Assembly: GCF_000011805.1 (NCBI RefSeq)
Contig: NC_006841.2
From: Aliivibrio fischeri ES114
GTDB lineage: Bacteria > Pseudomonadota > Gammaproteobacteria > Enterobacterales > Vibrionaceae
Reading direction: 5' to 3' (one strand)
DNA length: 32,000 nt
In this document: positions 2,916-31,411 of the stretch, one piece after another
How positions within the stretch are numbered: position 1 is the first letter of the stretch
How the letters are laid out: each line of letters opens with the position of its first letter
The notes under the pieces: model-generated
The model's database searches: none
What the model was told of the DNA's origin: nothing
The model's input: the letters and a program-made list of their open reading frames with translations, nothing else
Position numbers and translations under genes: made by a program

Positions 2916-3191
2916 TAAATACCTTTGTTTTTTGATAGTTACTTTAAATTTATTTATCAATTAGTTAGCTAAATAAAATTCAATTAAAATAGTGTAATTT
3001 TAGTATGTTACAGAATAATGATGGATTAAAACTAATGAAGTAGATGTTACTGAGAGATTTATGGCAAGTACGAAACAGGAGCAGATGTTTGAAATGTTGC
3101 AATCTTACAAGTAGAGCTAATTTAATTATTAATAATGCATTGTTAAAGTAGCGTAAATGATGCAAGCACCACTCACGCAACTTATTTGAAA

Positions 3192-3401
3192 TTAAAGCGC
3201 TACAACGTTAGCAGCTTGAGGGCCTTTTTGGCCTTGCTCAACTTCAAAAGAAACTTTTTGGCCTTCAGCAAGAGTTTTGAAACCTTCTGAAGCGATAGCA
3301 CGGAAATGTACGAATACGTCAGCGCCGCCGTTATCTTGAGTGATGAAACCAAAACCTTTTTCTTCGTTAAACCATTTAACGATACCAGTTGTTTTAGACA
3401 T
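3192..3401 (-). CDS. cspA: cold-shock protein, CspA family (single CSD)
   Basis: 69 aa, [36 protein letters not shown]..., with RNP1 (KGFGFI) and RNP2 (VFVHF) motifs. The SD is aaGAAGGGacataatATG. The cspA symbol denotes the family only; the exact paralog is not determinable. Confidence 0.95.
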
Positions 3402-3583
3402 ATTATGTCCCTTCTTAGTAAGAATTCATAAAAATCGCATTATGCGATGTGCTTGAGCTTGAATTATTAAATGTGGCGATAAAGCTAAGGGAGACACTGA
3501 GGATAACAACACTTACGAAGAAATTCTGAGGGCTTACTTTTACTTGATGTTCACTAACAACTCTGAGCAACAGAGCGAGAACA

Positions 3584-4668: not shown

Positions 4669-6858
4669 TTAATACACATCACTGCGATCAATACACGTTA
4701 CGTAATCGGTGTACGTGTCATAACCGTCATCGCTATTACCATTACTCAAATCAAGCCAGAAATGAGCATCGGGATCAGAACCTGATCCTGATACGGTAGA
4801 CGACCAGTAATATGTATTGGTTGGCCATTGATATTTCCCCATATCACCATATTCATTCTGCAATGTTTTTAAGTCCCATATCGTTGGTAACGTCCATGAC
4901 GAGCTGCCACCAATACGTAAACCTTCACAAAATTGCTTTGCTGTGTCTGGATGATATTTAGGATATTTATAGCCGTTTTCATTGTTGTACCCATCATAAT
5001 TATGATAAGAACCAACCTGATCTAATTGCTCAACATTGACTGGGCAAGAAACTTTAGCGCCGCTTGATAACGTCACCATTCCACCATCGTTTGAGCAAGT
5101 AGGTGTATATTTATCATCATCTTCAGTGATAGCTAATGACGTTATACAACTTTGATTTCCTTCAATTTGCCCTGTACTTTTAGGAACAACACAGAACTCA
5201 ATGTGCTGGCCAACAAGAGAGGCATCATTTTTTAAATTGAAAGTAGAAGAGAAATGCTCTGTTCCTTTGTCTCGATATAATTCTTCGTGAGTTTCCACCA
5301 CAGTCCACGTGCGCAAACTGTTTTTTTCTTCTGCACCAGAATCAGCAGCAACATAAAGATAATCACCTTTTAATTTCTCGCCTATAACTGGAACATCAGG
5401 AGTTATTCGTAACGATGACACCGAAGGTAAACTCTCTTCCCCTGTCTTCCATGTCGTTATTTCATCACCACAACTAGGGTGATATGCAAGAAAATAAGAT
5501 ACGCTGTTATCAGGAGCTTGCGTGGAGTACAAATCAATAGGTATGCCATCGCAAGTCAACGTAATATCATCAACATTAGCTCCATTAGCCCAACTGTTTA
5601 AAATATTACTTCCTGCCCCCAAGCCTTGGTGGTTTACAGCAGCAAATGCATTACCACTAGCAATGGTTTCACTAGCAGGAGCAACAAATGCATTTAAAGC
5701 ATCAGGTGACAGTTCTGCACTTTGTAACGCATCAATATAATTCCCGTCACTATCAAGAACCAAAGCACCTTCATTAGATGTTCTCGTCACTAAACGGGTA
5801 TTTTCTCCATACGTTTTTTTAGTATGTAAATTGCCCCATTGCGCCAGTTTTCCGGTTGATACATCCGTAGCAATAAAGCTGCATCGAGTCGCACTTAACT
5901 GAGGACTTTTCATATTTGATAAGAAATCAGAAGTTGATGAATTTATCTTTCCTCCACAAGCATCATCCCCCCACGCATAAATAGTTGAATTAGAGATAAC
6001 CGCAAAGGCTTTTTCTGTTGCTTGTATGCTCGAACTTCCAGAACTATTTAAAATCGAGGAAATATCACTAGGAATAGTGCCCGACTCTGAATTATCTCCC
6101 CCCCATGCAACGTATTTATTACTCTGTGTTTTAACTAGAAACGCATCTTTCGTAGCATAAATAGACTGTACAACTTCATTTTTTAAAGCCTTTTTAGCCT
6201 CTTTAGATATGGTTCCCCCAGCGGCACCATCACCCCACGCTTTAATCTTTCCTGATTCTAAAAGCGCAACCCAAGCGATAGACTCTCCAATAGTACCTCC
6301 AGAGTGATAAATTGAGCGTATAATGTCGGAAGAAGTAATTGCATCAATAGAGCTCTCAGTTCCTGTCGACGGAGTATATTCAATAAGTGAACCATCGGTT
6401 TTCACTATCATGAATGATTCTGTTCCTGGGTAAACTGACTGGATATTTTCAATCGATTTTTCTTCACCGCGAGTAACACCATTTCCCCAAGCGACCCCAT
6501 TTTTGGAGGTTGGGTTTACAGCGAGAAAGGCACTACCAGATGCATACATTTGGCTAGGTTTAATAAACGTTAATAATTCATCTAATGTACTTCCTGCTTC
6601 TATTTCCCCCCCAAACTGCGGATTACCAAATGCCATCACATTTTGATATTCACCCTTATCTTGTATGATAAAAGCACCTGCAGCGAGATTAATCCCAGCA
6701 GTACCTGGTAATGGTTCACTATTATTAAAGCGATAATTATTTGTTTGATTAAACCAACTGTTATTCGCTTCGCTTTGAGGGATTAACATTGGTTGTGCAG
6801 CCATCACTACTGGACTTAATACATTAGCCAATAGAAGTGCGATAATAGACTTTTTCAT
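4669..6858 (-). CDS. secreted multidomain protein: RCC1-like beta-propeller repeats, an Ig-like module and a C-terminal DUF1566/Lcl-C-like (C-type-lectin-fold) domain
   Basis: The likely start is ATG 6858 (caAAGGAataATG, signal peptide MKKSIIALLLANVLSPVVMA). The ORF-track start at 6903 would overlap the upstream gene. There are about 8-9 repeats of AF[LA]V...G.[VI].AWG....GG.I. A module follows with W..V...G..I.FCVVPKS.TG..G...C. The C-terminus reads FCEGL..GG.SSWTLPTIWDLKTL...YQWPTNTYYWSST...HFWLDLSNG...YVTCI, which matches my memory of the DUF1566 consensus (W.LP...EL..L...YWSS...aw.v....G...yv.Cv). Confidence 0.85.
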   Translation of the reverse strand: MKKSIIALLLANVLSPVVMAAQPMLIPQSEANNSWFNQTNNYRFNNSEPLPGTAGINLAAGAFIIQDKGEYQNVMAFGNPQFGGEIEAGSTLDELLTFIKPSQMYASGSAFLAVNPTSKNGVAWGNGVTRGEEKSIENIQSVYPGTESFMIVKTDGSLIEYTPSTGTESSIDAITSSDIIRSIYHSGGTIGESIAWVALLESGKIKAWGDGAAGGTISKEAKKALKNEVVQSIYATKDAFLVKTQSNKYVAWGGDNSESGTIPSDISSILNSSGSSSIQATEKAFAVISNSTIYAWGDDACGGKINSSTSDFLSNMKSPQLSATRCSFIATDVSTGKLAQWGNLHTKKTYGENTRLVTRTSNEGALVLDSDGNYIDALQSAELSPDALNAFVAPASETIASGNAFAAVNHQGLGAGSNILNSWANGANVDDITLTCDGIPIDLYSTQAPDNSVSYFLAYHPSCGDEITTWKTGEESLPSVSSLRITPDVPVIGEKLKGDYLYVAADSGAEEKNSLRTWTVVETHEELYRDKGTEHFSSTFNLKNDASLVGQHIEFCVVPKSTGQIEGNQSCITSLAITEDDDKYTPTCSNDGGMVTLSSGAKVSCPVNVEQLDQVGSYHNYDGYNNENGYKYPKYHPDTAKQFCEGLRIGGSSSWTLPTIWDLKTLQNEYGDMGKYQWPTNTYYWSSTVSGSGSDPDAHFWLDLSNGNSDDGYDTYTDYVTCIDRSDVY

Positions 6859-6883
6859 TATTATTCCTTTGTTATTATTTTTA

Positions 6884-8725
6884 TTACTCATTGAACACAC
6901 CATCAGGAACAGAATTGCCCCACATCACGACAGCATTGCCCCCCCTAACATAAAACCCCCCTGCAGTTTCCTCCTCGAACTCAGAAAACGTATTAAAACT
7001 ACCAATTTGAGAAATATCAGAAAGATCATTAATAGCGCTACGTAAATTCAAACTAGAATCATCAGAAGAAAGACACTGATGCCCATCAGGAATACAACCT
7101 CCTTGGTTTAGCCCTCCCCACGCATAAACATCATCCATCGCCTTCATCAAAAAAGCGTGATTGTTGCCAATGACATTAGCTATTGAGAAAGTAGGTATGT
7201 TGCTAGGTAAGGTTCCGCCATATTTCTTATCTCCCCACACAAAAAGATGTGAGCTGTCGTATAAAGCAATGGCTTTTTCTGTTGATGCACAATGAAAATC
7301 ATCGGTAATCGTTGTTGCATCTAACTCTGTTTGAATATTTGATGGGATATAACCAGCACCGTAATCATTTCCCCATGCAGCAACCCCTTTATTGCCATCA
7401 GAAATAGCAACAAACGATGCATCAGAAGCACATAAACGGGTAATAGGGTTTGTATTAGTAAAGTCCGTAGCCGCAGAACTTAGTAACCCACCATAATATG
7501 AATCACCCCATGCTTTTACCTTCCCTGATGTGGTGATCCCAGCAAAGGCATAACGAGTCGCGTACACCGTTTGGATATTTTGGTGCTGCTCAAATGGACT
7601 ATGTCCCCATGAATAAGCATTTCCATCATTATCGAGTACAGTAAAACTGTCTTGAGACGTGACAATATCTTTAATTGATAAAGCGGATTTCATTTCATCA
7701 GGTAATGTGCCGCCATATATGGACTGCCCCCATGCAACAAGCTTTTGTTTACCACTTGGCATATCAAACACAGCTAAAAATGCTTGAGCGGTATGATAAA
7801 TTGCCTTTGGTAAACCATCTTTGCTTAACAACTTATCAATACGTTTTTGTGCTTCACTTGATATTGCTCCACCACGAACCATATCCCCAGCCGTATTTAT
7901 TCCACCATCTTTTAAAATGGCAGCCATAGCATAAGGCGCTGGAAAAATTTCTTCGACTTGATTTATATAAGATGGCGTCGTATCAAACTGCCCCCAAATA
8001 ATGGCATCATCTGACTCACTTTTAATCGCAAAGCCATCAAGCATAGAATACACTTCTTTCGCTTTAGGTAAGTTAGGGGCATTAGTCACTTCAGAGCCAT
8101 AACCAATTAATGAAGCATCGCCCTCAGAGCTAAGAGATAACGCCGCAGAATTACTTGTTACAAAGGAAACATCATCTTTTGCATCCGTGATTGGTGCATT
8201 GTATAAACTGAAGTTTTTAGTTTGATTTAAATAACTGAATAACGCATTTTTATTATCAATATCTCCATTAGTAATTAATTCACTTCTGCATTCATTTTCT
8301 GATGGAGCATAACTTCCAGGCAGATAAGTTACTTTAATACAGTAGCGTAAATATTTATTATTTGTATCTTTTGGTACATTAATTGGAATTTCAGGAAACC
8401 CATCACCAGATATATTCCCGCAAGTTAATAATCCATCTAATTCACATTCCTCCTTATTATTATTGATAATACTTTTTAACGTATCGTCCGTTATTTCACA
8501 CTCAGATGAATCATCATTTAAAATACAAGCACTGTATAATACCTTTATATCTGAGTCTGGTGTGGTTTTATAATTTATATTTGTTATTTCATTTTCTTTT
8601 GGTGGTGAAGATAAATGAAGCTGATCAATAGAAACCCTTGGTAGCTTTGGAACAATAGCATTAGCCATATTCCAGCTACTGGATAGAATGGTAATAGTCA
8701 TCCCTACCCAATATTTATATTTCAT
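6884..8725 (-). CDS. secreted protein: N-terminal Cys-rich module plus RCC1-like beta-propeller repeats (paralog of the 4669-6858 propeller)
   Basis: Signal peptide MKYKYWVGMTITILSSSWNMANA. About 8-9 repeats, e.g. AFLAVFD..GKQKLVAWGQSIYGGTLP, AFAGITTSGKVKAWGDSYYGGLL, SFVAISDGNKGVAAWGNDYGAGYIP, AIALYDSSHLFVWGDKKYGGTLP, AFLMKAMDDVYAWGGLNQGGCIP. Confidence 0.85.
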   Translation of the reverse strand: MKYKYWVGMTITILSSSWNMANAIVPKLPRVSIDQLHLSSPPKENEITNINYKTTPDSDIKVLYSACILNDDSSECEITDDTLKSIINNNKEECELDGLLTCGNISGDGFPEIPINVPKDTNNKYLRYCIKVTYLPGSYAPSENECRSELITNGDIDNKNALFSYLNQTKNFSLYNAPITDAKDDVSFVTSNSAALSLSSEGDASLIGYGSEVTNAPNLPKAKEVYSMLDGFAIKSESDDAIIWGQFDTTPSYINQVEEIFPAPYAMAAILKDGGINTAGDMVRGGAISSEAQKRIDKLLSKDGLPKAIYHTAQAFLAVFDMPSGKQKLVAWGQSIYGGTLPDEMKSALSIKDIVTSQDSFTVLDNDGNAYSWGHSPFEQHQNIQTVYATRYAFAGITTSGKVKAWGDSYYGGLLSSAATDFTNTNPITRLCASDASFVAISDGNKGVAAWGNDYGAGYIPSNIQTELDATTITDDFHCASTEKAIALYDSSHLFVWGDKKYGGTLPSNIPTFSIANVIGNNHAFLMKAMDDVYAWGGLNQGGCIPDGHQCLSSDDSSLNLRSAINDLSDISQIGSFNTFSEFEEETAGGFYVRGGNAVVMWGNSVPDGVFNE

Positions 8726-13848: not shown

Positions 13849-14652
13849 TTAGCTCGATAAATAGGTAATAAGTGTCTTTTGAGCCAATTTAATATCATCG
13901 TCTGATACACCTATATACCTTAAGCTGACACTTTCTGATTTATGCCCTATGGTGGTCATGACAAGACTAATGTCCTTACCTGTTGCGAAATATAAATGCC
14001 TCGCAAAACTCTTCCTTAATGTATGACACCCTACTTTAGCTGTACTCCCTATTTTCTCTAACACCTGAGTAAGCTTAGAAAACACAGTCCAGCAAGCCTG
14101 ACGAGTTAATAAACCATCCACCCCTTTAGCTCTATTACTCAGTAATGTTTTACGACTAAAAACAGAATCGCTGTTAATGTGTCTAAACTTCTCCTTTCTT
14201 TGCTTAAGCATAAAAACCATTTTTTTACTGAATAAGAAGGAGCGAGTTACGGGTGGTGTCGCTTTTTTAGCTGCAGAAACCCTTTCATTCACCATTAATA
14301 TCCACTCTTTAGGAAGCAGTTTTTCAATTTGATAAAATGGGGTTATGTACGTTGCCGTCAATTTTTTAACGTTATGTTGGTAATGAAGAATAAGTTCCTC
14401 TTTAACTTGTTTAAGTACCCGATGTTTGGCTCTTGCTTTACGTGCTAATGTACCTTTACTTTCAATAACTTCACAATGACCGCTTCTAAAATCAATATCA
14501 GAATATTTTAATCTTAATATATCGCTGATCCGTAATCCTGTCTCAAGTCCAATATTCCAAATTAATGAAAATGCAGGATCATGATTCTTCTGTAAATATT
14601 TTGCCGCATACTTTAAATGCTCTTTGTTTTTTATTGGTTCTACATAAGCCAT
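13849..14652 (-). CDS. tyrosine site-specific recombinase/integrase (catalytic domain only, with an internal insertion)
   Basis: Catalytic residues read in order: R41 (ETGLRISD), K (ESKG), HxxR (CHTLRKSFARH), H (IGHKS), Y (LRYIG). The first Arg is only about 40 aa from the N-terminus, so there is no SAM-like core-binding domain. An extra stretch of about 50-60 aa lies between the beta-hairpin Lys and the HxxR box. Confidence 0.88.
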   Translation of the reverse strand: MAYVEPIKNKEHLKYAAKYLQKNHDPAFSLIWNIGLETGLRISDILRLKYSDIDFRSGHCEVIESKGTLARKARAKHRVLKQVKEELILHYQHNVKKLTATYITPFYQIEKLLPKEWILMVNERVSAAKKATPPVTRSFLFSKKMVFMLKQRKEKFRHINSDSVFSRKTLLSNRAKGVDGLLTRQACWTVFSKLTQVLEKIGSTAKVGCHTLRKSFARHLYFATGKDISLVMTTIGHKSESVSLRYIGVSDDDIKLAQKTLITYLSS

Positions 14653-26902: not shown

Positions 26903-27877
26903 TTAACGATTTAAACGTTGATCAATCTCTACTGCCAGTGCTACTGATGCTCCAACCATTGGGTTATTCCCCATTCCAATAAAACCCATCATCGCAACAT
27001 GTGCAGGTACAGATGAACTTCCAGCAAATTGTGCATCTGCATGCATTCTTCCCATGGTATCTGTCATACCGTAAGATGCAGGACCAGCTGCTACATTATC
27101 AGGGTGTAAAGTTCGTCCTGTACCACCACCAGAGGCCACAGAGAAGTACGGTTTTCCTTGAGATAAACGTTCTTGTTTATAAATGCCAGCAACAGGGTGC
27201 TGAAAACGTGTAGGGTTCGTTGAATTCCCCGTAATGCTCACATCCACATTTGCAGCATGCATAATAGCGGTGCCTTCACGAACATCATCCGCACCATAAC
27301 ATAAAATATCCCCACGCTCTGTTTGCGAAAAACGCTTTCTACTTACTTCAACCAATTCACCGGTTTGATAATTAAATTCTGTTCTTACATAAGTAAAACC
27401 ATTAATACGCGAGATAAGATAAGCGGCATCTTTACCTAAACCATTTAATACCACTCTTAATGGTGTTTGACGTGATTTATTTGCATTTAATGCAATTTTA
27501 ATCGCCCCTTCAGCAGCAGCAAAAGACTCATGACCAGCTAAAAATGCAAAGCACTGAGTTTCTTCCGATAATAAACGAGCTGCTAATGCACCATGACCAA
27601 GTCCAACTTGACGCTGCTCAGCAACACTCCCTTTTTTACAAAATGCTTGTAGCCCTTCACCAATCATAGTTGCAGCGGTTACCGCACTGTTTGCTTTTCG
27701 AAATAGTGCTAAAGCAGAGCCTAAAGTATAAGCATCACACGCATTATCAAAAGCAATCGGCTGAGTATCTAATACCAATTTCTTAGGATCGATCCCAGCT
27801 TCAAGGCAATAATCATATGCTTGCTCAAGTGTTGAGAAGTTCATTTCTTCAAGTAATGTTTGGATATTTGTATTCAT
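26903..27877 (-). CDS. GGGtGRT-family protein (uncharacterised)
   Basis: 324 aa containing the eponymous motif SVASGGGTGRTLHPDN. It starts 14 nt after the upstream NifU-like gene stop, which is the same gene pairing I recall for this family. Confidence 0.85.
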   Translation of the reverse strand: MNTNIQTLLEEMNFSTLEQAYDYCLEAGIDPKKLVLDTQPIAFDNACDAYTLGSALALFRKANSAVTAATMIGEGLQAFCKKGSVAEQRQVGLGHGALAARLLSEETQCFAFLAGHESFAAAEGAIKIALNANKSRQTPLRVVLNGLGKDAAYLISRINGFTYVRTEFNYQTGELVEVSRKRFSQTERGDILCYGADDVREGTAIMHAANVDVSITGNSTNPTRFQHPVAGIYKQERLSQGKPYFSVASGGGTGRTLHPDNVAAGPASYGMTDTMGRMHADAQFAGSSSVPAHVAMMGFIGMGNNPMVGASVALAVEIDQRLNR

Positions 27878-27891
27878 AATGATGGCCTCAA

Positions 27892-28584
27892 TTATTCTTG
27901 ACGTGGATCGACAGTTTTTACTGCTTCAGAAAAGCGTCCATAAGTACCCTTAGCACCTTTTAACGCTTCGTCAGCAGAAATACCTTTTCCAATATCAGCC
28001 ATCATTTTGCCAAGATTCAAATACTCATAACCAATCACTTCACTGTCTTCATCAAGACCTAAGCGAGTTACGTATCCTTCGGCTAATTCCATATAACGCA
28101 CACCTTTTGCATTAGTTGAATAACTCGTACCAACTTGGCTTCGTTTGGTTTTACCTAAATCTTCTAATGCAGCTCCAACCTCTAAACCACCTTCAGAGAA
28201 AGCAGATTGAGTTCGACCATAAGCAAATTGAAGGAATATTTCACGCATCGCAACATTGATTGCATCGCATACCAAATCCGTATTCATTGCTTCTAAAATG
28301 GTTTTTCCTGTCAGGATCTCAGCAGCCATTGCTGCAGAATGTGTCATGCCAGAACAGCCAATCGTTTCGATCAGTGCTTCTTCAATAATGCCTTCTTTCA
28401 CATTTAAAGTTAATTTGGCAGCCCCTTGCTGAGGAGCACAAGCACCTACGCCATGACTTAATCCAGAAATCGCTATTACTTCTTTTGGATTAATCATTCT
28501 TCCTTCAACAGGAATTGGTGCTGATGGGTGAAGATCGCCTCTTTGAATAGGGCACATGGTTTGAATTTCAGATGCGTATTGCAT
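27892..28584 (-). CDS. NifU/IscU-N-terminal-like Fe-S scaffold-like protein (long form, 230 aa)
   Basis: An IscU-like core with three spaced Cys (GVGACAPQ..., ETIGCSGMTHSAAMAAEILTGKTILEA, DLVCDAI) plus a C-terminal extension of about 100 aa. Confidence 0.75.
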   Translation of the reverse strand: MQYASEIQTMCPIQRGDLHPSAPIPVEGRMINPKEVIAISGLSHGVGACAPQQGAAKLTLNVKEGIIEEALIETIGCSGMTHSAAMAAEILTGKTILEAMNTDLVCDAINVAMREIFLQFAYGRTQSAFSEGGLEVGAALEDLGKTKRSQVGTSYSTNAKGVRYMELAEGYVTRLGLDEDSEVIGYEYLNLGKMMADIGKGISADEALKGAKGTYGRFSEAVKTVDPRQE

Positions 28585-28738
28585 AATGTTTTCCCATTGG
28601 TAAGGAAAACAGGTGTAGGAGGGTATATGACCTACAGACCAAGAGCGAACAGCAATCTCAATCTAGATAAGTAACTATATAGATACTTATTTGGATTGAC
28701 ATACAACGTCCATTCAACAGATACACCTGTTCTCTATT
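28585..28738 (-). promoter_or_regulatory. riboswitch expression platform: long-range anti-aptamer helix, anti-sequestor helix and SD-sequestering hairpin
   Basis: Minus-strand RNA, plus-strand coordinates. A is AUGACUCCUACAGA (28751-28738) and A' is UCUGUAGGUCAU (28638-28627); they form 12 bp with a 2-nt bulge. B is GAGAACAGGUGUA (28734-28722) and B' is UACACCUGUUUUC (28617-28605); they form 13 bp with one G-U. C is GUUUUCC (28610-28604) and C' is GGAAAAC (28594-28588); they form 7 bp, covering the GGGAA SD 7 nt before AUG 28584. B' and C share GUUUUC. A overlaps the aptamer pseudoknot strand. Confidence 0.6.
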
Positions 28739-28793
28739 CTGTAGGAGTCATCAGCCAACATTGGCGGTTAAGTAGGTGGAACCCCATCACCTT
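28739..28793 (-). promoter_or_regulatory. fluoride riboswitch aptamer (crcB RNA motif)
   Basis: Minus strand: AAGGUGAUGGGGUUCCACCUACUUAACCGCCAAUGUUGGCUGAUGACUCCUACAG. From memory, B. cereus crcB is GGCGAUGGAGUUCGCCAUAAACGCUGCUUAGCUAAUGACUCCUAC and the T. petrophila crystal construct is GGGCGAUGAGGCCCGCCCAAACUGCCCUGAAAAGGGCUGAUGGCCUCUACUG. Shared elements are P1 (AGGUG/CACCU), GAUGG.GUUC, AAC-CGCC, a small P3 (GCCA-AUGU-UGGC), CUGAUGACUCCUAC, and the pseudoknot between loop GGGGU and ACUCC (one G-U). Confidence 0.8.
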
Positions 28794-28803
28794 TACGTAT
28801 TCA

Positions 28804-28833
28804 ATATTAGCTCCAAAGAACACGCAGTCGCAA
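28804..28833 (-). promoter_or_regulatory. putative sigma70 promoter of the riboswitch-controlled operon (-35 TTGCGA, 18-nt spacer, -10 TAATAT)
   Basis: Minus strand: TTGCGA (28833-28828) and TAATAT (28809-28804). The predicted TSS is a few nt upstream of the aptamer P1 (28792). Confidence 0.4.
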
Positions 28834-28954
28834 CAGGGTTATTAGACTTATTTTATATATTAAAGCCAACTTTTATATTAGATAAACCATAAAGATTGAG
28901 TATTTATCACTAGTTAAGGTAAGTAATACAACGTAATGTAATATTACTTAAAAC

Positions 28955-30853: not shown

Positions 30854-31411
30854 ATGTATTTACATATGGCTATCGCAGCGCCCAGAATCTTGTGTCCAGA
30901 TATGGATTCTGACACAACAAAAAAATGGATTTTTCGAGAACCTTCGAGGACAGACGGTGACGATGTTTACGCATTGATCACCGAGTGTCCTCCTCTTGAT
31001 ATAAACTCTTCATACTGCAACTTTCTTCAAGCTACTCATTTCAGTAAAACCTGCGTTTTGGCAGAGAAAGATGGCGATCTCGCTGGCTTTATCTCTGGGT
31101 ATCAAGAACCTGATGAACCGAATACGCTGTTCATATGGCAAGTCGCCGTCTCCCCACGTTACCGAGGTAAAGGTTTAGCGTTTTCTATGCTAACCACGCT
31201 TTTAGAGCGAAAAAACCTTCTGCATATCGAATTTATAGAAACCACAATAACCAAAGCAAATAACGCCTCTTGGTCACTATTTAAAAAAATTGATGCCCAA
31301 TATGGAAATCAAGGGCAAGTCACTACGTTTCTAGATAAAGAATCACACTTTAAAGGCAAGCACGATACAGAGTATTTGTATCGTATCCCTCTAAAATCTT
31401 CACAAAAATAG
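30854..31411 (+). CDS. ectA: L-2,4-diaminobutyrate acetyltransferase (ectoine biosynthesis)
   Basis: GNAT fold with the EctA-typical N-terminus [35 protein letters not shown] and Q/RxxGxG-type CoA loop [10 protein letters not shown]. It is followed directly by ectB. The true start may be ATG 30902 (MDSDTTKKW...). Confidence 0.88.

Follow-up and report, generated by a model that had tools for sequence, protein, structure and literature searches.

The fluoride riboswitch class, or crcB RNA motif, is said to have been described by Weinberg in 2010 and by Baker in 2012. According to reviews, its members raise the expression of downstream genes, and those associated with it in a 2024 review comprise exporters, Na+/H+ antiporters, pyrophosphatase, HAD, enolase, formate hydrogen lyase and chorismate mutase. 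An experimentally validated example is the E. cloacae FRM fluoride operon, with the order riboswitch-ppaC-uspA-eno-gpmA-crcB-orf5249 (PMC5533749). A further described system is the B. thetaiotaomicron unit BT0173-BT0174, which encodes a GGGtGRT protein along with a homolog of NifU and drops 11- to 13-fold when iron is limiting; a glucose-sensing screen that also yielded pfkA gave transposon insertions in BT0173-4, which had a 2-fold effect but left growth intact. The C. pasteurianum homologue likewise responds to iron, and GGGtGRT is reported at high abundance in gut and rumen metaproteome papers. Here we analyse a 32,000-nucleotide (nt) stretch of contig NC_006841.2 of Aliivibrio fischeri ES114 (hereafter, the window, whose positions are used throughout), in which a fluoride riboswitch precedes an operon for an IscU/NifU-like protein (hereafter, NifU-like) and a GGGtGRT-family protein. 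We consider it likely that this riboswitch serves as an ON switch for the operon and that the pair takes part in the fluoride-stress response.

The aptamer and the operon it leads

In a cmscan search against Rfam 15, the minus-strand segment 28800-28735 matched the fluoride riboswitch family RF01734 with 61.2 bits against a gathering score of 34 (E 7.6e-15), that is, 27 bits above the threshold, spanning the full model (positions 1-64 of 64) with zero non-canonical pairs. The whole-window scan gave one other above-threshold match, to the cspA thermoregulator. In the alignment to the Rfam consensus, the conserved core (GAUGG..GUU, AACCGCC and CUGAUGACUCCUAC) was found in its entirety with maximal posterior probabilities, and a custom covariance model built from the hits described below scored the same element at 77.7 bits. 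The sequence-only reading had proposed a fluoride aptamer upstream of this operon; its core segment (28793-28739) lies within the RF01734 match, and the features it had picked out by eye (GAUGG.GUUC, AAC-CGCC, a small P3 and a loop-tail pseudoknot) were each confirmed. The aptamer shares its strand with the operon, and its 3' end lies 150 nt before the AUG (Table 1).

The two genes named in that reading were recovered by Pfam, the first through a marginal NifU_N match (25.3 bits) and the second through PF14057 (558.3 bits). Gene 2 starts 14 nt past gene 1 with its own GAGG ribosome-binding site (RBS), and is followed by a perfect hairpin with a U-run (-28.1 kcal/mol, z -5.5 versus shuffles, RNA fold of 26905-26815), a terminator that the consensus scan did not call. 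The short gap and the closing hairpin together indicate a self-contained bicistronic operon. Pfam scans of all window open reading frames (ORFs) of at least 80 amino acids (aa) detected no CRCB or Voltage_CLC domain, in agreement with the earlier statement that the window holds no fluoride channel gene.

A promoter-like site ends 3 nt upstream of the aptamer match, from which transcription would start a few nucleotides ahead of the aptamer, so that the transcribed leader is probably ~215 nt. The 370-nt leader given previously equals the entire intergenic space (28955 to 28584, minus strand). Support for this candidate promoter, which had also been proposed previously, comes from positional conservation: TTGCnn-N17/18-TAnnnT occurs directly upstream of the aptamer in related Vibrionaceae leaders as well. 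Stronger promoter-like matches are found elsewhere, with TTGACA-18-CACAAT in Dongshaea and TTGACA-17-TATGGT in Psychrilyobacter. Two further elements were seen around these sites. A TCTAAnAA box is conserved ~5 nt upstream of the -35-like TTGCnn (window 28834-28850, minus strand; leaders L001, L003, L004, L006 and L008-L018), and many Vibrio leaders carry TGTGA-N6-TCTAn in the promoter spacer, which resembles a CRP half-site. These elements could provide protein-level control on top of the riboswitch.

Table 1. Positions of the operon, its leader elements and its terminator in the window
Feature	Position	Strand	Sequence or remark
Promoter-like site	28833-28804	-	TTGCGA 28833-28828, 18-nt spacer, TAATAT 28809-28804; read from sequence
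Aptamer P1	28791-28788 / 28778-28775	-	GGUG / CACC
Aptamer pseudoknot	28785-28780 / 28749-28744	-	GGGGUU / GACUCC
Aptamer P3	28765-28762 / 28757-28754	-	GCCA / UGGC
Expression platform	28585-28734	-	four elements (b to e); complementarity read from sequence
Platform element b	28734-28722	-	GAGAACAGGUGUA; directly after aptamer
Platform element c (anti-aptamer)	28646-28631	-	GCUCUU..CUGUAGG; complements aptamer 3' tail CCUACAG and GAGA
Platform element d	28617-28604	-	UACACCUGUUUUCC; complementary to b and to e
Platform element e	28595-28588	-	GGGAAAAC; presumed ribosome-binding region, 3 nt before AUG
Gene 1, IscU/NifU-like	28584-27892	-	230 aa
Gene 2, GGGtGRT family	27877-26903	-	324 aa
Intrinsic terminator closing operon	26823-26864	-	GGGCUGAAGAUA...UAUCUUCAGCCC then UUUUUU

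Conservation across loci and linkage to fluoride genes

To place the element in a comparative context, 80 genome loci encoding GGGtGRT relatives were scanned with Rfam at gathering thresholds. The aptamer precedes the NifU-like/GGGtGRT pair in 34 further loci, 32 of them at the Rfam threshold and two via custom models. Every gammaproteobacterial locus with upstream sequence carries a fluoride riboswitch upstream of the NifU-like gene. Specifically, riboswitch-led loci (35-62 bits) were found in Aliivibrio, about 15 Vibrio species, Photobacterium, Parasalinivibrio, four Shewanella and the fusobacterium Psychrilyobacter, with Moritella, Motilimonas, Dongshaea and a metagenome contig (L088, 48.8 bits) as later additions and one further Vibrio locus recovered by the covariance model built from the hits. 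A simple aptamer regular expression missed two thirds of the true matches and was replaced by covariance models. No riboswitch was detected in any of 51 loci of Clostridia, Bacilli, Chloroflexi or Collinsella, in 79 of 80 gut and rumen metagenome loci, or, with the covariance model, in the Bacteroidales locus of Parabacteroides distasonis (L166). The association is near-universal in marine Gammaproteobacteria and rare elsewhere. The pair itself, described as conserved in the sequence-only reading, is invariably arranged with the NifU-like gene directly upstream of GGGtGRT on the same strand (138/138 loci having 800 nt or more of sequence upstream).

RF01734 matches recur across the orthologous leaders, and P1, P3 and the pseudoknot covary; two outcomes that the sequence-only reading had named as refuting it did not occur. 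Counting these pairs in 24 orthologous aptamers, 94.8% of cells were standard-paired, a value that fell to 38-62% when the 3' partners were slid by 1-3 columns. Changes on both sides were seen in seven of the 14 pairs (one in P1, three in the pseudoknot and three in P3), and the covariation score of 0.316 compares with 0.108 in column shuffles and was reached by none of 500. Particularly telling is the pseudoknot, which reads GGGG/CUCC in Vibrio-type aptamers, GAUG/CGUC in those of the Photobacterium type and GAAGCU/AGCUUC in the Psychrilyobacter one; its compensatory changes include G-C to A-U and G-U to U-G.

In four independent lineages, recognised fluoride genes are neighbours of the pair. 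The order in Dongshaea marina is riboswitch, NifU-like, GGGtGRT, Usp, CrcB and a family-II pyrophosphatase (ppaC). In Psychrilyobacter the riboswitch and the NifU-like/GGGtGRT pair are followed by a 258-aa ORF whose Usp match stays below threshold (21 bits) and then by two CrcB genes, and no terminator-like site was found between the genes in the row from the pair to crcB. A family-II pyrophosphatase ppaC follows the pair in four Photobacterium species and Parasalinivibrio, and in the marine Bacteroidota member Persicobacter psychrovividus an aptamer-like element and a CLC gene are followed by a terminator and then the pair. The first three of these partners, ppaC, usp and crcB, are components of the validated E. 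cloacae operon (PMC5533749). The A. fischeri operon itself contains no known fluoride gene, and the clustering with crcB, usp, ppaC or CLC in other lineages argues that the pair itself belongs to the fluoride response. The earlier wording, that the riboswitch controls the pair instead of a fluoride exporter, therefore fits the A. fischeri operon and fails for Psychrilyobacter, whose row reaches two crcB genes, and for Dongshaea, whose row reaches usp, crcB and ppaC. The Persicobacter element (L165, 1178-1239) has AAAUGCU in place of the consensus AACCGCC and scores 26 bits with the custom covariance model; it may represent a divergent form of the fluoride aptamer in Bacteroidota, or just a weak match.

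Beyond the pair, clustering of all ORFs in the 80 genome loci revealed no conserved neighbour; clade-specific neighbours include LysR, YebG, SLAC1, PTAC and BacA. Matches to plasmid databases were rejected as evidence of mobility, as they correspond to second chromosomes or assembly fragments. In one Clostridia metagenome-assembled genome, a Gut-1 RNA (RF01706, 51.5 bits versus 50; L053, 5980-6046, plus strand) lies directly downstream of GGGtGRT and might be a 3' element of the operon in gut bacteria. The P. distasonis locus (L166, 3079-5921) has a 63-aa ORF between the NifU and GGGtGRT genes, and its neighbours TlpA, OsmC and nitroreductase form a redox-stress context.

Collectively, the conserved aptamer, its covariation, the operon structure and the linkage to fluoride-resistance genes identify the window element, on sequence grounds, as a genuine member of the established crcB-motif class of fluoride riboswitches, one that serves this operon. 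We regard this regulatory part of the finding, a standard fluoride riboswitch, as secure.

Expression platform and a proposed switching mechanism

The distance from aptamer to AUG, 150 nt in the window, ranges from 100 to 260 nt in relatives, and the order of the four platform elements in this interval (Table 1) makes the pairing of the aptamer tail with c and the pairing of b with d mutually exclusive, suggesting a relay. The CUGUAGG part of c lies at 28637-28631, and element b has a 13-bp complementarity with UACACCUGUUUUC (28617-28605). In the unconstrained minimum free energy (MFE) fold of the window leader, the tail is bound to c, and d to e. Without fluoride, the tail CCUACAG would thus be held by the anti-aptamer CUGUAGG and the flanking CUCUU, the segment GAGAACAGG would be kept inside the tail/anti-aptamer helix, and the freed anti-Shine-Dalgarno segment CCUGUUUUCC would form a hairpin with GGGAAAAC before the AUG, blocking translation initiation (OFF). 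With fluoride, the Mg2+-fluoride-bound aptamer would retain its tail in the pseudoknot, the anti-aptamer helix would be lost, and GAGAACAGGUGUA would capture UACACCUGUUUUC over 13 bp, opening the ribosome-binding region for translation of both genes (ON). A secondary Rho-dependent polarity is possible.

This scheme is mirrored in relatives. Photobacterium-type leaders have an analogous relay built from unrelated sequences, in which the tail CUAACAACA pairs with UGUUGUUAG, and the remaining pairings are GGCAAUGAAUGG with CCAUUCUUUGC and UUUGCUCA with UGAGCAAA. In the unconstrained MFE folds, 28 of 29 leaders have the aptamer tail bound to a segment farther downstream, and with the aptamer sequestered, positions -14 to +3 gain in unpaired probability in 26 of the 29. 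Among 18 non-redundant leaders, the mean rise in RBS accessibility was +0.16, as against 0.00 when the platform between aptamer and RBS was dinucleotide-shuffled (Wilcoxon p 1.5e-5); the A. sifiae leader (L001) gave +0.23. Gammaproteobacterial leaders lack an intrinsic terminator, their longest U-run being at most 5, which makes intrinsic termination unlikely in this group. The Psychrilyobacter leader has a hairpin overlapping the aptamer tail and then U8, a classic antitermination ON design. Two different platforms before the same operon, both predicting activation by fluoride, constitute strong evidence of function, and the riboswitch most likely turns on translation of the operon in A. fischeri. 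A long platform with a predicted translational relay is thereby documented for the fluoride riboswitch class.

Two other accounts of the leader need to be weighed against this one. Fluoride might act mainly on transcription, by preventing premature Rho-dependent termination in the long leader, with Shine-Dalgarno sequestration secondary or absent. The length of the leader (150 nt here, 100-260 nt in relatives) would suit such an output, as would the equilibrium fold of the window leader, in which no RBS opening is computed; untranslated leaders of Gammaproteobacteria are, in general, typical Rho substrates. Against it, in addition to the missing intrinsic terminators and short U-runs, stands the conservation of the d-e hairpin 3-4 nt from the AUG together with a competitor b that is rebuilt with other sequences in the Photobacterium type, a combination that is hard to explain without translational control. 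We therefore hold a mainly transcriptional output to be somewhat unlikely, the two mechanisms not being mutually exclusive. Far less credible is the idea that the aptamer-like sequence is a relic without function, or that it now recognises a different ligand. The genes downstream are unusual for this riboswitch class, and lower scores (35-49 bits) are seen for Photobacterium-type variants, whose P3 closes with a G-A pair; yet the window element clears the threshold by 27 bits with every consensus core nucleotide kept, the aptamer is conserved with compensatory changes in at least five gammaproteobacterial families and a second phylum, two distinct ON-type platforms precede the one operon, and the pair is co-located with crcB, CLC and ppaC. 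Taken together, these observations make a relic or a changed ligand highly improbable.

Several observations nonetheless weigh against a fluoride-induced translational switch for this pair and deserve to be stated together. Within the window, the promoter-like site agrees with the consensus at 8 of 12 positions and was not called by the consensus scan, element e is a weak Shine-Dalgarno match, and the computed rise in RBS accessibility upon aptamer sequestration is only +0.01 under equilibrium folding, so that the translational mechanism is transferred from relatives such as A. sifiae. Compared with its closest relatives, the window leader has a ~50-nt insertion (28650-28715, minus strand) that forms its own hairpin. 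A second copy of the aptamer tail, CCUCCUACA, lies at 28623-28614; Aliivibrio sp. (L004) shares this copy, and A. sifiae (L001) has a degenerate one. The insertion and the second copy may explain the missing RBS opening, and the mechanism in the window, which we infer by homology, may depend on co-transcriptional folding. As regards linkage, Dongshaea has a terminator-like site after usp, and P. damselae has a strong terminator between the pair and ppaC; to that extent the linkage reflects adjacency and not co-transcription. The Dongshaea GGGtGRT gene (L083, 4704-5700) was moreover called as 80- and 118-aa fragments that flank an antisense ORF, which points to a frameshifted pseudogene or else to an assembly error in the only genome whose pair lies within a usp-crcB-ppaC cluster. 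The structure model of the NifU-like protein was poor (predicted local distance difference test score, pLDDT, of 58) and was rejected as evidence. At the broadest level, ~130 homologous loci in Firmicutes, Chloroflexi, Actinobacteria and Bacteroidales lack the riboswitch, which means that the main role of the pair cannot be fluoride-specific.

The surroundings of the operon resemble an accessory-genome setting, with two large RCC1-repeat proteins, one having an Lcl/InvE-type adhesion C-terminus (4669-8725, minus strand), a phage-type integrase (13849-14652, minus strand) and the ectoine-pathway acetyltransferase EctA (30854-31411, plus strand; 200 bits). At 3149-3579 (minus strand), far from the operon, lies the full-length cspA thermoregulator (RF01766, 116.3 bits versus 78), marking a cold-shock gene with a structured 5' untranslated region.

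The protein pair and its described relatives

The NifU-like protein is 100% identical to Aliivibrio fischeri proteins. Its NifU_N match (PF01592; cut-off 22) covers residues 31-101 and profile positions 11-85 of 127 only, and its scores against the NCBIfam IscU/NifU/SufU equivalogs remain far below their cut-offs (29.6 versus 187.9, 24.3 versus 192.4, 18.6 versus 92.5 and 15.3 versus 273.3). Its best PDB match in a profile search is IscU 4eb5 (E 1.3e-5). Its first ~75 residues are similar to the IscU fold; for the last ~120, no family match was obtained. Residues ~30-110 align with IscU, including a central GC motif (C77); the first IscU ligand (PVCGD) aligns to QQGA, so that C77 is the only match to a ligand cysteine, in 4eb5 alignments that end near residue 112, before the third ligand. 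Four residues never vary within the family (C11, C77, C106 and H19), and two more, C49 and H44, show conservation of at least 90%. Neither among the conserved neighbours in the 80 loci nor in the window was there a cysteine desulfurase or any further ISC/SUF/NIF gene.

The GGGtGRT protein, 98% identical to the A. fischeri GGGtGRT protein, matches PF14057 over profile positions 10-326 of 327, and its SGGGTGRT motif (residues 249-256) is invariant in the family alignment. Its AlphaFold2 model (pLDDT 80, predicted template modelling score, pTM, 0.80) has a single low-confidence region, the motif loop 251-278. No significant fold match in the PDB was found for this model (best Foldseek E 0.02, template modelling score <0.3), nor did sequence searches, a profile search included, find a PDB relative. 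The family is monolithic: an exhaustive search of 1.8 billion cluster representatives gave no full-length member with less than 45% identity to the query, and the pair is 66-70% identical between Vibrio and Clostridia. The invariant SGGGTGRTLHPD at residues 249-260 (27131-27096, minus strand) bears what we take to be a resemblance to the GG(R/M)TSH phosphohistidine motif of phosphoenolpyruvate (PEP)-utilising enzymes, which may be chance; Pfam detected no PEP-utilising phosphohistidine domain in the GGGtGRT protein.

Domain fusions were rejected as functional hints, being chimeric assemblies or internal duplications. Truncated GGGtGRT C-terminal halves are joined to housekeeping fragments in P0249, P0270, P0285, P0289, P0295, P0304 and P0306, the partners in these metagenome proteins being ABC ATPase, Tex, SusD, IMPDH, GyrA, GGDEF and GuaA, and internal duplications occur in the metagenome proteins P0002, P0091, P0103 and P0104. 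The chimeras look like assembly artefacts, promoted by the very high conservation of the gene.

The metal- or iron-sulfur (Fe-S)-centred branch of the fluoride response that the sequence-only reading had suggested would rest on the four conserved cysteines and the iron-responsive homologues. We infer that the two proteins probably function jointly under fluoride stress, as a metal or Fe-S protein pair with cysteine ligands. The pair would belong to the fluoride-stress response of marine facultative anaerobes, probably as an enzyme that sustains a metabolic step poisoned by fluoride, and in gut anaerobes it would be expressed constitutively, without fluoride control. Two more specific possibilities are both rated low. 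One, which we think unlikely, is that the pair is a hitherto unrecognised enzyme, dependent on iron or Fe-S, in central carbon or phosphoryl metabolism, providing a fluoride-insensitive bypass of a Mg2+-dependent housekeeping enzyme, with the enolase/phosphoglycerate segment and pyrophosphate handling as the obvious candidate steps. If this is true, the same pair would be a fluoride-induced backup in marine Gammaproteobacteria and in constitutive use in gut anaerobes. The usp-crcB-ppaC clustering without the eno and gpmA of the FRM operon is compatible with such a bypass, as are iron-dependent expression, the glucose-sensing screen shared with pfkA and the very high conservation. The other possibility, an Fe-S cluster scaffold with an accessory protein, whose induction by fluoride would serve to rebuild Fe-S clusters or metal centres that were damaged or stripped, appears to us less likely still. 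It would agree with the NifU_N match and the IscU proteins as best PDB relatives, with the conserved cysteines and with the iron-responsive expression of homologues. It is countered by scores of 24-30 bits against IscU/NifU equivalog cut-offs of 188-273, by the single aligned ligand cysteine in alignments that stop short of the third ligand, and by GGGtGRT being the sole conserved partner, with desulfurase and ISC/SUF/NIF genes not among the conserved neighbours; family-wide identity of at least 45%, 66-70% identity between phyla and abundance in gut and rumen metaproteomes look more like a metabolic enzyme.

Under either possibility, the proposed membership in the fluoride response has consequences for a pair that ranks among the most conserved protein pairs without an assigned function. 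Few computational clues to function are as strong as a ligand-specific riboswitch, which indicates here that the pair is wanted when cytoplasmic fluoride rises, and the clustering with crcB, CLC, usp and ppaC in four lineages points the same way. The riboswitch association may therefore be taken as a useful functional lead: the pair gains its first clear physiological context, fluoride stress, which is testable in the genetically tractable A. fischeri. The riboswitch class is known and this instance can be found by automated annotation; the pair, in turn, is a new member of the fluoride regulon beyond those in the reviews. We found no paper linking the fluoride riboswitch with GGGtGRT, NifU or an iron-sulfur cluster, though a supplementary gene table, such as that of Baker 2012, might list the association; the first 200 supplementary files of Weinberg 2010 mention neither NifU nor V. 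fischeri.

Compared with described systems, the NifU-like protein departs from the IscU/NifU scaffold (PF01592, TIGR01999, TIGR03419; ~130 aa) in its 230 aa, its scores far below the equivalog cut-offs, its different conserved set, its lack of a desulfurase partner and its obligate partner GGGtGRT. Among the relatives of the pair, BT0173-BT0174 is likewise a two-gene unit and is the sole family member found with phenotype or expression data. Its papers draw no link to fluoride, and the Bacteroidales locus examined here differs in lacking the riboswitch and in having a small ORF between the genes. In the E. cloacae FRM operon, a fluoride riboswitch likewise drives non-exporter proteins, along with or instead of a channel, and three of its components (usp, crcB and ppaC) are common to the Dongshaea marina cluster. 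The latter has the pair and lacks eno and gpmA, a parallel in composition only and not in functional equivalence, whereas the A. fischeri operon has the NifU-like/GGGtGRT pair alone. Relative to the crcB-motif class as a whole, the genes in the window are neither crcB nor CLC-F, nor any gene class of the 2024 review, and the gammaproteobacterial platform is a long three-helix translational relay of 100-260 nt, in contrast to the many members whose terminator overlaps the aptamer. In the aptamer itself, the window element conforms to RF01734, being likewise full-length, with P1, P3 and a covarying pseudoknot, and located in a 5' leader, and its predicted ON logic likewise operates through competition for the aptamer 3' tail.

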